From positions 288,001-352,000 of the forward strand of contig OZ251219.1 of the NCBI GenBank assembly GCA_965240465.1: 64,000 nucleotides of DNA, written 5' to 3'. Position numbers and translations under genes: made by a program. The notes under the pieces were generated by a model. It was not told the origin of the DNA. It worked only from the letters and a program-made list of their open reading frames with translations, and searched no databases. This stretch comes from a bacterium (GTDB lineage: Bacteria; SAR324; JACQKK01). Below, one piece after another: positions 4,459 to 63,057 of the stretch (positions are counted from its first letter, which is position 1; each line of letters starts with the position of its first letter).

Positions 4459-4701
4459 ATGAACGAATACTATGTATATAAGCTAACCAAGGGTAGCACG
4501 ATCGTCTATTTCGGCAACACAGAGAAAGATCTGGATGAAGTTGTCAAGGATCACCGTGGACAAGGCTGGGATTTCGACTCCAGCGAGTGCATTGGCACTT
4601 TGCCAGATAAAGAAACAGCCCAAGATTTGTGCGAAGTACAACTCAAAGACTACGAGAGCAAAAACAGTCAGCTACCTAAGTACAACATAGAGCAAGAATA
4701 A
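4459..4701 (+). CDS. Small GIY-YIG-like protein (80 aa)
   Basis: GGAGG RBS before ATG 4459; YVYKL...VYFGNT and C-terminal LPKYN pattern. Confidence 0.55.
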   Translation: MNEYYVYKLTKGSTIVYFGNTEKDLDEVVKDHRGQGWDFDSSECIGTLPDKETAQDLCEVQLKDYESKNSQLPKYNIEQE

Positions 4702-4708
4702 GGAGCTC

Positions 4709-4769
4709 GCAGGAGAAGGATTGGGAGGAGAGGATTGGCAGGAGAGGATTGGCAGGAGAGGATTGGCAG
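4709..4769. repeat. Tandem repeat, 14-bp unit GGCAGGAGAGGATT, ~4 copies
   Basis: Read directly. Confidence 0.9.
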
Positions 4770-4780
4770 TCTCTTTGGGA

Positions 4781-5178
4781 TAGGGGATATTCTTAGGGTC
4801 TGAGGTGCTAGGGGATGTTCTTAGGGTCTGGGGTGCTAGGGGATATTCTTAGGGTCTGGGGTGCTAGGGGATATTCTTAGGGTCTGGGGTGCTAGGGGAT
4901 ATTCTTAGGGTCTGAGGTGCTAGGGGATATTCTTAGGGTCTGAGGTGCTAGGGGATATTCTTAGGGTCTGAGGTGCTAGGGGATATTCTTAGGGTCTGAG
5001 GTGCTAGGGGATATTCTTAGGGTCTGAGGTGCTAGGGGATATTCTTAGGGTCTGAGGTGCTAGGGGATATTCTTAGGGTCTGAGGTGCTAGGGGATATTC
5101 TTAGGGTCTGAGGTGCTAGGGGATATTCTTAGGGTCTGAGGTGCTAGGGGATATTCTTAGGGTCTGAGGTGCTAGGGG
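4781..5178. repeat. Tandem repeat, 28-bp unit TAGGGGATATTCTTAGGGTCTGAGGTGC, 14 copies plus a partial copy
   Basis: Period 28 (4781, 4809 ... 5173); no spacers; lies between convergent genes. Confidence 0.97.
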
Positions 5179-5184
5179 GAATCT

Positions 5185-6609
5185 TTATTTCAGGCGTTCC
5201 AGTTTGTAGCCGTTGGGATTATCTTCTACCGCATAACCTGCCTCCAGCAATGTCTTACGTAGGTCATCAGCCTGCTGCCATTTTCTTTGCTCTCTGGCTT
5301 GCTGGCGAGCATCTGCCAATGATTTCACCTCATCTGGGATGGTCTGAAAATCTGTTTCTGCAGCTCTTAAACGACTGAAATCTAATAGCCCTAATCCCAG
5401 CAAGGGTTCAACCCAAGCGACCAGATCACATTTCTTCTGAGCCTCCAAACTATCATCACGCATTGCCTGCCACAACAATCCCAAAGCCCGCGGAGAATTG
5501 AGGTCATCACAGAGAACTTCCATTATGGACTGCTGCAGATCATCAGCTGGGGAAGATAAAGTCGGAACGGCAGGCTGGTTAATTTGCTGAAAAGCAGTTC
5601 GTACTAAGTACCTCATATGCATTAGGGCAGACTCAGCAGCTCGCAATGCAGACCAAGAAAACTGCAAATATTGCCGATAATGATTGTTAAAAGCCAAATA
5701 ACGAAACGCCAAGGGTTCTATTTCCTCGGCAAGCAGGGAATCCAAGCTCAGCATATTCCCTTCCGATTTTCCCATCCGCCCCTCCTTGAGAACCAAAAAT
5801 GCCCCATGCATCCAATAATTAACAAAACGCTTACCAGTCGCAACTTCAGATTGGGCTATCTCATTAGTATGGTGAACTGGAATATGGTCGCTACCACCAG
5901 TGTGAATATCAAATGTTTCTCCCAAATATTTCATGGACATGGCAGAGCATTCAACGTGCCAGCCTGGGAATCCCCTACCCCAAGGACTGTCCCACTCCAT
6001 CTGACGCTCTACACCCTCGGCAGTGAATTTCCATAGGGCAAAATCACTTTTCCCCTTCTTGCCATGCACTTCTATTCGGACTCCCGAACGCAAACCTTTA
6101 AGGTCCAAACGAGCCAGACGACCATAATCTGCAAAATTCCTAGCATGATAATAAATCCCATCTGAGGTGCGATAAGTGAACCCCTTGGCTTCCAGATTTC
6201 TAATCAGGTCAATCTGCTCTGTGATGTGCTCTGTAGCGCGGGGTAGATGATCGGGAAGCTGAATACCCAATTGCTTAATATCTTGTAAAAAGTAGTCGGT
6301 GTATTCTTGAGCAATCTCCCAAGCTGAGCATTCATTAACACGGGCAGCACGCTCTACTTTATCTTCTCCCTCATCGGCATCAGAAATTAGATGTCCTACA
6401 TCGGTGATGTTTATCACATGGCATACCTCCAGCCCCAAGGCACCTAACACCCGCTTTAGCAAATCTGGAAACAAATAGCTGCGTAAATTGCCGATATGAG
6501 CTCGTGCATACACGGTCGGACCGCAGGTATAAATACCTGCTCGTTTCGCGATAAGCGGCTTAAAAACCTCCTTTTTGCGAGTGAGGGTATTAAACAGCCT
6601 TAGTTGCAC
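5185..6609 (-). CDS. cysS: Cysteinyl-tRNA synthetase
   Basis: CGPTVY, HIGN, GFPGWHVECSAM, DIHTGG, and RMGKS (KMSKS-like) motifs. Confidence 0.98.
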   Translation of the reverse strand: MQLRLFNTLTRKKEVFKPLIAKRAGIYTCGPTVYARAHIGNLRSYLFPDLLKRVLGALGLEVCHVINITDVGHLISDADEGEDKVERAARVNECSAWEIAQEYTDYFLQDIKQLGIQLPDHLPRATEHITEQIDLIRNLEAKGFTYRTSDGIYYHARNFADYGRLARLDLKGLRSGVRIEVHGKKGKSDFALWKFTAEGVERQMEWDSPWGRGFPGWHVECSAMSMKYLGETFDIHTGGSDHIPVHHTNEIAQSEVATGKRFVNYWMHGAFLVLKEGRMGKSEGNMLSLDSLLAEEIEPLAFRYLAFNNHYRQYLQFSWSALRAAESALMHMRYLVRTAFQQINQPAVPTLSSPADDLQQSIMEVLCDDLNSPRALGLLWQAMRDDSLEAQKKCDLVAWVEPLLGLGLLDFSRLRAAETDFQTIPDEVKSLADARQQAREQRKWQQADDLRKTLLEAGYAVEDNPNGYKLERLK

Positions 6610-8618: not shown

Positions 8619-8749
8619 AATGATGTACCTCAGATAACCGTTCAGTATCCCTGCTCAGTACTCCCACTCACTCCCCCCCGTACCCGACAAACCCCGATGA
8701 TCCTATACGTACATATGCATACAGCGTGCCTGAAGACCCCCCCCCCCCC

Positions 8750-8905
8750 CACCTAAGCCCGACTATCTTTGCAGCTTGCCAAGAATCCGCTAGATTTTCA
8801 CCTAAGCCCGATTATCTTTGCAGCTTGCCAAGAATCCGCTAGATTTTCACCTAAGCCCGACTATCTTTATAGCTTGCCAAGAATACGCTAGATTTTCACC
8901 CAAGC
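8750..8905. repeat. Tandem repeat, 49-bp unit, 3 copies plus a partial copy, preceded by a C homopolymer
   Basis: ACCTAAGCCCG.. at 8751, 8800 and 8849; partial at 8898. Confidence 0.92.
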
Positions 8906-16665: not shown

Positions 16666-16739
<74 letters not shown>

Positions 16740-16888: not shown

Positions 16889-16962
16889 AGCGGGAAACGG
16901 GATTCGAACCCGCGACCCTCAGCTTGGAAGGCTGATGCTCTAGCCAACTGAGCTACTCCCGC
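16889..16962 (-). tRNA. tRNA-Gly(TCC)
   Basis: GCGGGAGTAGCTCAGTTGG...TCAGC-CTTCCAA-GCTGA...GGTTCGAATCCCGTTTCCCGC-T. Confidence 0.95.
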
Positions 16963-59846: not shown

Positions 59847-59892
59847 GCTAGACCCCCCCCCCAACTGCTTGAAAAATAGAGCAGACCATTTT

Positions 59893-59921
59893 GGGAGTGA
59901 GTTAATACTCACTCCCTTTTT
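59893..59921 (+). terminator. Repeated array terminator hairpin
   Basis: GGGAGTGAGT-TAAT-ACTCACTCCC-TTTTT. Confidence 0.85.
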
Positions 59922-59955
59922 CTTTCTGGGGGGACAACCAATCTCTTTTAAGCAC

Positions 59956-59984
59956 TTGACAAACTGATCGCGATACCCTACACT
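59956..59984 (+). promoter_or_regulatory. Putative sigma70 promoter of the candidate ncRNA
   Basis: TTGACA-17 bp-TACACT, same hexamers as the 41347 promoter. Confidence 0.65.
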
Positions 59985-59990
59985 CACATT

Positions 59991-60625
59991 ATCAAAACAT
60001 TTTTAGTGATCCAAACTGCAGTTATGCCGAACCTAGGCTGGTAAGGATAGGTTCGCTAAGGGTTTTAGATAACGAATGAAAGGGGATTGGTGGGTAGTGA
60101 CCGCCTGAGGTTCCGTCATACCGAAGGGTGGATCATGTGTGTCCTTTGTTGCCTTTTGGCATATGTTTTGGCACACGCAAATGACGAGGAAGATGAGGAG
60201 GTAGATTGCACCGAAATCTCTTCTCCCCTCCGCAAATGAGTAGAACTTAGGCAAGTCCTAGATTCCTGCCATTAAGGGATTAAAACGCGGATCAAGCAGT
60301 CGCAGAAACACTAGCGGGAGTTTAATAGCTCCGAAGGTCGTGGAACGCCGTTTCTGTTTTGGTGAGTACTTTTAGTACTTTTTCCAAGGTATAATTTCAC
60401 GCCTAGTACCGAGCTGGGACTGAGCAATTTTAATTAATTGCCAGAGCGAAAGCGAACGTCAGTCTCGGTTCACTTAGTGGCATCCTTTCGGTAGCCACTA
60501 GCGAAGCTGAGGTCGTCATTGCAAACCGTAAGACTTCGCGGGAGGACCGTGCCATCATCTCAGGGTGAGGATTTTTGAGAATAATGGAGCAAGCGATGAC
60601 ATTCCTCACCAAGCCTCTTTCATTC
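59991..60625 (+). ncRNA. Candidate large structured non-coding RNA (~630 nt), family unassigned
   Basis: Closing stem 60074-60094/60605-60625 (20 of 21 pairs, 2 G-U); multiple internal helices with G-U pairs on the + strand; GAAA tetraloop; own promoter; no credible ORF. Confidence 0.7.
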
Positions 60626-60721
60626 TACCCCCCCCGACTGCACCTTAGGCTACCTCCCCCCCCTCACCTTGATTTCTCCATCACCCTGCTCTTAAAGGCA
60701 TGCCAGATGGCAGAAGATAAC

Positions 60722-60750
60722 TTGACAACACCCCCTCTGCCTGCCATGAT
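60722..60750 (+). promoter_or_regulatory. Putative sigma70 promoter for array gene 16
   Basis: TTGACA-17 bp-CATGAT. Confidence 0.55.
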
Positions 60751-60817
60751 GAAGACTGGCGATTTCTCAAAGCTGAGGAATGCCCTAGCCTTTCGCATCC
60801 ATATCGGAGGATTTCTG

Positions 60818-62791
60818 ATGAAAGAATTATCATTACTATCAGCCAGTTGTATTCTGGCTCTATTTTTAGCTAGCTGCGGGGGGGGTAGTAGCGGGGGGGG
60901 GGGTGGCGGCGGGGTTGTAGATACCGATGGCGATGGCATACCCGACAGCAAGGATTTATGCAAAAATAGCATTGACGAGAACTTCATCAGCAGTAGCACC
61001 ACCGACGCCGACAAGGACGGTTGCAAAGATGACGACCCTAACGGAGAAGACCAAGATCGTGGTAATGGTAAAGACAAAGATAATGATGGCAAGGTAGGTG
61101 CTGATGATAAATGTCCGCAAGGTGAAACTAACTGGACGAGCATAAGCACTAGCACTGACCCCGCTGTAACTATCACCGACAATGACAGCGATGGTTGTCG
61201 GGATGCTGGCGAGGATGTAGATGACGACAATAACGGTCTAATAGAAATTGCCACTGCTCTGGAGCTAAACAACATCCGCCACGATTTGGACGGCACTCAC
61301 TATGATGAAGATGAAGATGACAGCACCAATATAGGCTCTAATACGGGTTGTTCTACTACTAATCCCGTAGGTTGCAATGGCTACGAACTAGCTGGCGACA
61401 TTGATATTTCTTCCATTATCAACTTTGTTCCCATTGGTAGCTTACCCGATCCTTTTTCTGCTATCTTACAAGGTAATGATTATACCATCAGTAACCTAAA
61501 AATTGCCACCGACAATCCCACCAGATTCACGGGCTTTTTTGCGGTTTTGGGTACTAATAGCACGGTACGGAACTTGTCCTTTGAAATGGGTTCAGTTTCC
61601 AGTAGCAACGGTAATGCTACTTTTGATAATGTCAACTATGTGGGGGTTCTGGCAGGCACAAATAAAGGAACAATATCGGGTGTTTCTGCTGATATATCAG
61701 TTTCTGCCAGTGAAGATACCTTTAACTATGTAGGTGGCTTGGTAAGTCATAATAGTGGCACCATCAGTTCTAGCCATGCCACTGGCTCTGCCACTGTCTC
61801 TGCTGCCGGTGGTAAACTTAGTCTAGTGGGTGGCTTGGTAAGTGCAAATTTTGGCATCATCAGTTCTAGCTCTGCCACTGGCTCTGCCACTGGCGGTGGT
61901 GTTGGTAATAACTGGGTAGGTGGCTTGGTAGGTTATAATTCATCCACCATCCAAGATAGTTATGCCACTGGCTTTGCCACTGGCGGTGCTAATAGTGACT
62001 TTGTCGGTGGCTTGGTAGGTGATAATTTTAGTGGCACCATCAGTTCTAGCCATGCCACTGGCAAGGCTGATGGCGGTGGTGGTGGTGACTTTGTCGGTGG
62101 CTTGGTAGGTTATCATGAGTTTCACACCACCATCATCAGAAATAGCTATGCCACTGGCAAGGCTGATGGCGGTGCTGGTGATGACATTGTCGGTGGCTTG
62201 GTAGGTTCGAATGAGAATACCATCAAGAATAGCTATGCCACTGGCAAGGCTGATGGCGGTGCTGGTGATGACATTGTCGGTGGCTTAGTGGGATTTATTG
62301 CTAATGCTTCCACAACCATCAGTAACAGTTACGCCTTAGGAACTGTTGATGGAGGTGCTGACGGCGATGAAGTGGGTCGCTTGCTTGGCAAAAAAGGGAC
62401 TGGTAGTATTGGGACAATTACAATTACCAGCAACTATTATGATAGTGGTAGTAGCTTAACTGGCGAAAGTCCCCTATCCCTTCCAGATACCGAAGCTCTG
62501 GGCAGGACCAAAGCCCGGCTGAAAGCCAACAACAATGTTGCCCCCGATAGTGATACTGCTTGCAGTAGTGCTGGGGGAACTTGGAGTAGTGCTGCATGCA
62601 CCTATGGGCATCTGGACTTTAGTACCGACAACTGGGATTTCACTGCTGACAAATACCCCAGCCTGAGGTCTTATAAGACTACCACTGATACCAGCACCCC
62701 CCCCGTGGTCACCCAAATCGCAGGCGATCTGCTCTGTGGGCAATTACCCGAAGCTGACTTCGTTCAGTGTCCCCCCTCCACTACGCCTTAG
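60818..62791 (+). CDS. Array lipoprotein 16
   Basis: GGAGG RBS before ATG 60818; FLASC; same architecture. Confidence 0.9.
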   Translation: MKELSLLSASCILALFLASCGGGSSGGGGGGGVVDTDGDGIPDSKDLCKNSIDENFISSSTTDADKDGCKDDDPNGEDQDRGNGKDKDNDGKVGADDKCPQGETNWTSISTSTDPAVTITDNDSDGCRDAGEDVDDDNNGLIEIATALELNNIRHDLDGTHYDEDEDDSTNIGSNTGCSTTNPVGCNGYELAGDIDISSIINFVPIGSLPDPFSAILQGNDYTISNLKIATDNPTRFTGFFAVLGTNSTVRNLSFEMGSVSSSNGNATFDNVNYVGVLAGTNKGTISGVSADISVSASEDTFNYVGGLVSHNSGTISSSHATGSATVSAAGGKLSLVGGLVSANFGIISSSSATGSATGGGVGNNWVGGLVGYNSSTIQDSYATGFATGGANSDFVGGLVGDNFSGTISSSHATGKADGGGGGDFVGGLVGYHEFHTTIIRNSYATGKADGGAGDDIVGGLVGSNENTIKNSYATGKADGGAGDDIVGGLVGFIANASTTISNSYALGTVDGGADGDEVGRLLGKKGTGSIGTITITSNYYDSGSSLTGESPLSLPDTEALGRTKARLKANNNVAPDSDTACSSAGGTWSSAACTYGHLDFSTDNWDFTADKYPSLRSYKTTTDTSTPPVVTQIAGDLLCGQLPEADFVQCPPSTTP

Positions 62792-62968: not shown

Positions 62969-63057
62969 GGAGAGGTGACTGAGTGGCCGAAAGTGGCAGA
63001 TTGCTAATCTGTTGTGTGGGGAAACTTGCACCGCGGGTTCGAATCCCGCCCTCTCCG
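62969..63057 (+). tRNA. tRNA-Ser(GCT)
   Basis: GGAGAGG...GCAGA-TTGCTAA-TCTGT, long variable arm, GGTTCGAATCC, CCTCTCC-G. Confidence 0.95.

Follow-up and report, generated by a model that had tools for sequence, protein, structure and literature searches.

Introduction

Apart from ribosomal RNA, RNase P RNA and introns, bacteria have few large structured RNAs, and each class described so far has raised questions about what RNA can do alone. ROOL, GOLLD and OLE span many taxa, and OLE is accompanied by neighbouring genes for partner proteins (oapA and others). Here we describe an RNA of comparable size encoded in a 64,000-nucleotide (nt) stretch of a SAR324 genome (assembly GCA_965240465.1, contig OZ251219.1, positions 288,001 to 352,000), referred to below as the window. 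We conclude that window 59956-60625 probably forms a gene in its own right, whose product is a highly structured, non-coding RNA, and that it is one of seven copies that have diverged within a single genome while keeping the same pseudoknotted core.

The RNA resembles ROOL, GOLLD and OLE in being several hundred nucleotides long, with nested helices, its own transcription unit, no coding function and a role not evident from context. It differs from them in matching none of the three models, in existing as seven diverged paralogues that include a short, core-only form, and in having been found in one species only. ROOL, GOLLD and OLE are reported to form homo-oligomers, and the raiA motif is reported in over 2700 species. 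The short form is on the scale of raiA and of orphan RNAs, being a structured RNA of about 200 nt with pseudoknots; unlike raiA, it has no Rfam match and its family is known from one of 88 genomes of the phylum.

Two further comparisons are instructive. With large ribozymes such as RNase P RNA and group I introns, the RNA shares a long-range closing helix, a pseudoknotted core, hairpins that vary in sequence and remain paired, and natural minimal and expanded versions; in contrast to them, its loci give no intron-model or RNase P-type match and are not inserted in a host gene. With 6S and CsrB/RsmZ-type RNAs it shares a strong independent promoter, paralogues and a proposed binding of protein through unpaired motifs, although a functional likeness is speculation. 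6S is a rod with a central bubble, whereas the present RNA is multi-branched and pseudoknotted, and neither is it a string of GGA-loop hairpins like CsrB.

Paralogues of the window RNA

The genome is a single contig of 1,599,138 bases, which we searched for copies by BLAST and with two covariance models, R1 and R2. There are seven, five long and two short (Table 1), with R2 scores of 91-160 bits. The long copies measure 552-590 nt between the first and last base of the closing stem and are 68-95% identical. The three most alike (90-95%; c348, c877 and c716) have common flanks and are thus segmental duplicates, so that the family represents about five independent lineages. A TTGACA-17-TAnnnT promoter can be read in all seven copies, with the scan tool agreeing for c531, c1211 and x1572, and the same core set (helices P1, P2 and P3, a CGUCAY/RUGACG pseudoknot, GAGGAGGU..UGCACCGWAAUCUCUU and the promoter) is found in every one of them. 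A sequence-only reading of the window, made before this analysis, had described neither the multi-copy state nor the short form, nor the P2 hairpin.

No open reading frame (ORF) is common to the copies, and c1211 is without any ORF of 50 or more amino acids. Insertions and deletions that are not multiples of three make up 14 of the 16 between the window copy and c531, and 16 of the 18 between the window copy and c1211. Since no reading frame is conserved, we regard the family as one of RNA genes. A small ORF, consisting of GAGGAGGU followed by UUG/CUG CAC CGW AAU CUC UUC, was considered and rejected: its start is CUG in three of seven copies, the peptide is not conserved past six residues, and its wobble positions are invariant except for one synonymous CGA/CGU.

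Several copies differ by short repeats. The apical loop of the long hairpin (window 60436) carries a 13-nt unit, CYAGTTTGCATTG, which is absent from the window copy and present twice in c877 and three times in c716; these differences are copy-number variation within the RNA gene. The 26-nt insertion in this loop recurs in contigs of the sequencing runs that contain the sequence (four runs, from two studies). In x1328, about 12 units of a 16-nt tandem repeat, GCAAGCATTAGAACAT (genome 1328290-1328560), lie between promoter and core and stretch the leader, and a repeat of about 14 nt lies directly downstream of x1572.

Table 1. Features of the RNA gene, in window coordinates, and the copies of the gene in the genome
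Feature	Position	Strand	Remarks
Intrinsic-terminator-like hairpin with T run	59893-59916	+	belongs to upstream lipoprotein gene; scan tool
Sigma-70-type promoter TTGACA-17-TACACT	59956-59984	+	10/12 match; scan tool
5' leader	59991-60073	+	conserved blocks ACAUUUUU..GUGAU and AAACUGCAG (alignment)
P1 closing stem, 5' strand GAATGAAAGGGG-A-TTGGTGGG	60074-60094	+	stem of 20 base pairs
P2 hairpin	60097-60136	+	60097-60106 with 60126-60136; conserved loop CUGAGGUUCCGUCAUACCGAA
P3 hairpin, variable length	60137-60176	+	GUGUGUC 60137-60143 with GGCACAC 60170-60176
Junction GCAAAUGACGAGGAAGAU	60177-60194	+	AUGACG 60181-60186
Module A (P4)	60195-60223	+	GAGGAGGU 60195-60202 can pair with AUCUCUUC 60216-60223
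Peripheral domain, about 350 nt	60224-60576	+	long copies only
Stem-loop	about 60233-60278	+	peripheral domain
Helix GCAGAAAC/GUUUCUGU	60302-60309/60350-60357	+	peripheral domain
Hairpin	about 60361-60386	+	peripheral domain
Long hairpin with GAAA loop	about 60406-60471	+	peripheral domain
Hairpin	60475-60500	+	peripheral domain
Module B GAGGUCGUCAUUGCAAACCGUAA	60509-60531	+	5/5 long copies; contains GUCRUUGC
P5 helix, GUCAUUGC with GCGAUGAC	60515-60522/60593-60600	+	module B to 3' tail, long range
Conserved 3' tail GAGAAUAAUGGAGCAAGCGAUGACAUUC	60577-60604	+	carries 3' strand of P5
P1 closing stem, 3' strand CTCACCAA-G-CCTCTTTCATTC	60605-60625	+	end of conserved unit
Copy c348 (window copy)		+	long
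Copy c877		-	long; 93-95% identical to window copy
Copy c716			long; 90-93% identical
Copy c531			long; 74% identical
Copy c1211			long; 68% identical
Copy x1572		-	short, 251 nt; found only with covariance models
Copy x1328			short, about 220 nt; found only with covariance models

Compensatory change and the fold of the core

We aligned the 5' core of the seven copies to the covariance model and counted pairs on that alignment. Both sides were altered in 12 of 34 pairs and 90.7% of 227 cells were paired, counts that lean towards structure because the alignment is fitted to the model and the copies are paralogues of one genome. None of 500 shuffles reached the observed values, and with the partners slid the paired fraction was 36-58%. 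In an alignment of whole units (MAFFT), P1 was paired in 96.9% of 131 cells across the seven copies, with three pairs altered on both sides; c1211 has a matched deletion on both strands of P1, and in x1328 P1 is likewise shortened on both. P2 was 97.2% paired, with 5 of its 11 pairs altered on both sides, and P3 95.9% paired, with all seven of its pairs so altered.

The loop of P2 also pairs outside its own hairpin, CGUCAU (60114-60119) with AUGACG of the junction (60181-60186). This pseudoknot reads CGUCAU/AUGACG in the long copies and CGUCAC/GUGACG in both short ones, which is one compensatory change from U-A to C-G by direct reading of the sequences; the column count of the core alignment is invalid for this helix, the loop having been aligned one base out of register, and its loop strand has one extra base each in c877 and c1211. 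Beyond the junction, the loop of module A contains the invariant UGCACCGWAAUCUCUU (60207-60222), and the whole block from GAGGAGGU to its end is identical in the seven copies except at W. Comparison of the paralogues shows that the predicted core (P1, P2, P3, the pseudoknot and the tail helix P5, described below) has been kept through compensatory change.

The thermodynamic folds agree with this picture. On the + strand, the region 59991-60640 has a minimum free energy of -211.7 kcal/mol (z-score -3.47), and none of 20 shuffles was as stable, so that the window region is more stable than its shuffled controls; the - strand reaches -197.9 kcal/mol (z-score -3.33), which leaves the + strand more stable by 13.8 kcal/mol. 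For the two short copies the z-scores are -6.04 and -7.42, and none of 200 shuffles matched their stability.

The sequence-only reading had picked out helices by eye, and all of them lie where it placed them, with 80 of 80 pairs standard in the window copy. Over the five long paralogues this structure has 92.5% of 385 cells paired, against 33-47% with partners slid, and seven pairs altered on both sides. The closing stem, CGTCAT/ATGACG, GCAGAAAC/GTTTCTGT, TAGTGGC/GCCACTA and GTCATTGC/GCGATGAC stand up to the comparison, and the two helices of the 3' tail (numbers 8 and 9 of that structure) are 100% paired in the five long copies. The first helix, the leader hairpin at 60028-60055, is weakly conserved, with 78% of cells paired in the long copies. 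The 13-base-pair helix GAGCTGGGACTGA/TCAGTCTCGGTTC exists in the window copy, but its outer register fails in c531; an alternative register of that outer part, ACCGAG/CUCGGU in the window copy and AUCAAG/CUUGGU in c531, is compensatory on reading the sequences. Finally, GCCTGAGGTTC/GAACTTAGGC (60103-60113/60243-60252) can form in the window copy, but it shows no compensatory change and competes with P2, and its 3' strand is absent from c1211 and both short copies. The CGTCAT/ATGACG pairing that had been nested inside it is real, while the enclosing helix is unsupported by comparison.

As had been seen from the sequence, the G-U pairs of the helices sit on the + strand: they account for 35 of the 227 core cells on the promoter strand, a count that excludes two in the misaligned pseudoknot helix, and on the opposite strand each would be a C-A mismatch. 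This bears on whether the segment might work as DNA, being an invertible promoter switch or recombination site whose inverted repeats give rise to an apparent RNA structure. A promoter and 21-base-pair inverted repeats amid surface protein genes that look phase-variable would suit such an element, as would the finding that both strands fold better than shuffles. However, the promoter is outside the inverted repeats, the 35 G-U cells would be mismatches in DNA, and covariation extends to the local hairpins P2 and P3. In contigs of the four sequencing runs there were only the genome's own paralogues or near-identical low-depth pieces; no inverted joint occurs in them, the sole joints being skips that fit the paralogues. 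A DNA-level element is accordingly a scarcely credible account of the locus, and we return to the gene as one for an RNA.

Transcription unit and peripheral domain

The upstream terminator, the TTGACA-17-TACACT promoter and a separate promoter for the gene downstream (60722-60750, preceding the lipoprotein gene at 60830-62791) were all recovered by the scan tool as the sequence-only reading had described them. The terminator module of 59893-59916 recurs behind many lipoprotein genes, and here its hairpin shields the RNA gene from transcription coming from upstream. The position of the promoter suggests that the RNA starts near 59991-59993. When the five long copies are aligned, the conserved unit extends from the -35 box to the 3' strand of P1, and the leader of x1572 has blocks similar to those of the window leader. 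The earlier proposal that a large, structured, non-coding RNA has a promoter of its own here is supported.

Several hairpins of the peripheral domain persist in c531 and c1211 with different sequences. Where the long copies have this domain the short ones have only about 60-80 nt, and the conserved tail is paired differently in the two forms. In long copies it pairs with module B: GUCAUUGC/GCGAUGAC in the window type, GUCGUUGC/GCAAUGAC in c531 and GUCAUUGC/GCAAUGAC in c1211. In the short copies the tail pairs instead with the loop of module A (GCUAUUGC/GCAAUAGC in x1572 and GCCACUGC/GCAGUAGC in x1328). Reading across the copies, three positions of the tail helix differ on both sides. Because module B looks like the module A of the short form (local alignment with the x1572 module), we infer that the long form may have arisen from the short one by expansion with partial duplication; the duplicated module B would then have taken over the pairing with the tail.

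Searches beyond the genome

BLAST of the element against 40 relatives gave no match, and neither did R1 against 18 genomes of the family, nor R2 against 63 other genomes of the order or the full set of 87 others in the class, which here coincides with the phylum (88 genomes). We also used an exact pattern for the invariant module, GAGGAGGTN{2,10}TGCACCGNAATCTC (21 bases, gapped), which diverged relatives would escape. It occurs at 7 loci, mostly GC-rich, in 185,579 species genomes and at 11 loci in JGI metagenomes, all without the other core motifs and scoring at most 11.5 bits with R1. Shortened by one base, the pattern occurs at three loci in IMG/VR, none with other core motifs; the best of these (19.3 bits with R2) was rejected, as it is antisense within a 269-amino-acid ORF, apparently for a P-loop protein. 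The exact-pattern loci outside this genome are chance hits. Phage and plasmid collections gave no match by blastn. In the searches run there is thus no homologue outside the genome itself, and the comparison rests on paralogues.

We scanned Rfam 15 (4227 families) at the gathering score and at E ≤ 10. At the gathering score the window contains four tRNAs only. At E ≤ 10 the matches of the window copy (on 59850-60850), both short copies and three further long copies were at chance level, with no family in more than one copy; they were to eukaryotic, archaeal and viral families and one streptococcal small RNA, and differed between paralogues. Models run alone over the whole genome at E ≤ 1 gave no match to ROOL (RF03087, gathering score 99.1 bits; 14 control genomes silent and no positive control), GOLLD (RF02032, 150 bits), OLE (RF01071, 50 bits; control genomes silent and no positive control) or 6S RNA (RF00013; control positive in 5 of 14 genomes). 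HEARO, the IscB-associated RNA, whose family was presumably included in the Rfam library, gave no match in the all-family scan at E ≤ 10, which was not followed by an aimed single-family run. The ORFs beside the copies encode lipoproteins, a helicase, an ATPase and housekeeping proteins, with no adjacent IscB or IS605-type gene.

These searches bear first on the proposal that the RNA is a divergent member of a known large class (ROOL, GOLLD, OLE, HEARO or raiA) that Rfam models have missed. Its length of 552-590 nt is near that of the ROOL (574 positions) and OLE (616 positions) models, and it is ornate, multi-helical and of no evident function, as those classes are. Against this, no Rfam family reaches the gathering score, only chance-level matches appear at E ≤ 10, and the ROOL, GOLLD and OLE models are silent genome-wide, although for ROOL and OLE with no positive control. 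We regard missed membership of a known class as extremely improbable. The sequence-only reading had left a choice between a divergent member of such a class and a new one; because neither the Rfam scan nor the single-family runs gave a match, we retain the new class and set aside a divergent ROOL, OLE or GOLLD.

They bear equally on a selfish or decayed mobile element, whether a group I or II intron remnant, a retron-like element, or a miniature inverted-repeat transposable element whose inverted ends are P1. Such an element might be expected in several copies in one genome and not be found in relatives; the 21-nt inverted arms of P1 look like terminal inverted repeats, and three copies are 90-95% identical. 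However, the only match to Intron_gpI (RF00028) in the genome is of 15.6 bits at 1293761-1293992, below the cut-off, and that to Intron_gpII (RF00029) of 17.8 bits at 8708-8803, also sub-threshold; both lie at no copy, and group-II-D1D4-1 (RF01998) has no match in the genome at E ≤ 1, so that group I, group II D5-6 and D1D4-1 are all without a match at any copy. The genome has no RVT_1 reverse transcriptase, which removes the retron, diversity-generating retroelement and mobile group II readings; a template repeat of a diversity-generating retroelement had also been considered, and BLAST shows no similarity of the RNA to any coding gene. Furthermore, each copy lies between genes, interrupting none, and is preceded by its own promoter; conservation sets in at the -35 box, about 120 nt before P1, and no target-site duplication can be read beside P1 or the unit. 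The P1 arms are compensatory with G-U pairs, and P2 and P3 covary, which a transposase site leaves unexplained; the near-identical three are the segmental duplicates with common flanks. A mobile element is therefore decidedly unlikely. We favour a family of RNA genes.

Neighbouring genes

Lipoprotein genes with a LFLASCGG-type lipobox immediately precede four of the seven copies, and three of those four are the segmental duplicates, with their common flanks and 90-95% identity. The two lipoprotein genes that flank the window copy have GLUG motifs. The remaining three copies lie elsewhere: c1211 has a UvrD-like helicase gene on one side and, on the other, a convergent gene for an AAA_15-Toprim (OLD-type) ATPase, x1328 lies between an oxidoreductase-like gene and an ORF of 290 amino acids without assigned function, and x1572 is upstream of the atp operon and divergent from it. 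The neighbours of c1211 (genome 1208196-1213260) resemble a Gabija defence pair, but they are convergent rather than in one operon.

The sequence-only reading had linked the RNA to expression or diversification of the surrounding surface proteins. A cis-acting form of this idea would have the RNA act on the lipoprotein gene downstream, as a long leader or by read-through, or else drive expression or variation of the array. It draws on the four copies downstream of lipoprotein genes, on the lack of a terminator between the window copy and gene 60830-62791, and on the -35 context AACTTGACAA, which is common to RNA and lipoprotein promoters. Yet that gene has its own promoter at 60722, and the next downstream gene is convergent at c716, c531 and c1211 (three of the five long copies), in keeping with the earlier view that the RNA is not a leader. 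Complementarity to the conserved loops, sought across the genome with up to two mismatches, was confined to the copies themselves and to scattered 14-nt matches to a short Shine-Dalgarno-like motif, leaving no antisense target, and BLAST found no similarity of the RNA to lipoprotein coding sequences, so that it is not a template repeat. Because three of the seven copies (c1211, x1328 and x1572) are in unrelated contexts, away from lipoprotein genes, a functional tie to the array is unsupported, and we consider a leader or array regulator very improbable. The array may simply have copied the RNA gene along with its own repeats.

This array, at window ~22600-62800, is a long series of paralogous LFLASCGG lipoprotein genes with internal repeat families of about 90, 147 and 186 nt. 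G or C homopolymer tracts occur at its gene starts and spacers (for example 59847-59856, 60629-60636 and 60868-60900) and suggest slipped-strand phase variation. Outside it, window 4669-5256 holds at least 15 copies of a tandem 28-nt unit of up to 98% identity; as it has no spacers, it is unlike a CRISPR (clustered regularly interspaced short palindromic repeats) array. The four tRNA genes of the window are at 215-303, 16666-16739, 16889-16962 and 62969-63057, the last 2.3 kb downstream of the RNA gene. With the exception of that tRNA gene, the RNA gene here is not beside tRNA or phage genes, in which it differs from ROOL, GOLLD and OLE.

Discussion

We are fairly confident that these copies constitute a real family of structured RNA genes unknown to Rfam. 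Whether they also constitute a new class, in the sense of a large, modular, pseudoknotted RNA with a core of ~220-250 nt that some paralogues expanded to ~550-590 nt through an extra domain with a duplicated module, and that was amplified to seven promoter-driven genes in 1.6 Mb, we judge to be evenly balanced.

Several points weigh against these readings. All the covariation comes from about five paralogue lineages in one genome and could be overcounted owing to gene conversion or shared ancestry. P4 is 100% paired, yet seven of its eight pairs never vary, so that its pairing is no more than putative. The scan tool found no canonical terminator after P1 in the window copy, c531, c1211 or x1572, and among the four sequencing runs that contain the sequence there is no RNA run. 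The family was detected in only one of the 88 genomes of its phylum. At E ≤ 10, R2 gives no match in the sole other genome of the genus, which is distant (AtpA 81% identical); there, the region upstream of the atp operon does not conserve synteny and has no such RNA. Finally, nothing singles out a specific partner for the RNA.

We envisage that each promoter-driven copy would give rise to a stable, abundant transcript, which would act in trans, with the invariant unpaired motifs of the core binding a cellular partner, most likely a protein. The RNA would then be a scaffold or a sequestering RNA, with the periphery stabilizing the core, and would not regulate the neighbouring gene. The scaffold or sequestering mode in particular is a tentative suggestion drawn from the architecture. 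Alternatively, the RNA could be a ribozyme or an RNA-only assembly, whose invariant core with its pseudoknot would serve as the active site or as the surface for oligomerization. Large ribozymes typically combine a conserved core with a dispensable periphery, a contrast that the short and long forms also present, and homo-oligomers are reported for ROOL, GOLLD and OLE; however, we see no sign of a substrate, a cleavage site or a processing signal, and there is no similarity to Rfam ribozyme families. A catalytic or self-assembling RNA is conceivable but unlikely, and a trans-acting RNA that binds a protein is the mechanism we prefer.

The weakness of the finding is its reach, since it concerns a single organism and its general importance is uncertain. 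Within that organism, three things are unusual: minimal and expanded natural versions occur together in one genome, seven paralogues supply covariation without recourse to other species, and the family accounts for an appreciable part of the non-coding DNA in a reduced genome. The short and long forms show how peripheral domains join an RNA. If expressed, the family would be a compact model in which to study the binding or catalytic activity of a conserved pseudoknotted core. Should the RNA prove to be a new class, it would imply that RNA performs a dosage-demanding task in the cell, be it catalysis, self-assembly or the sequestration of a key protein, and the natural short and long forms would make its core directly dissectable.

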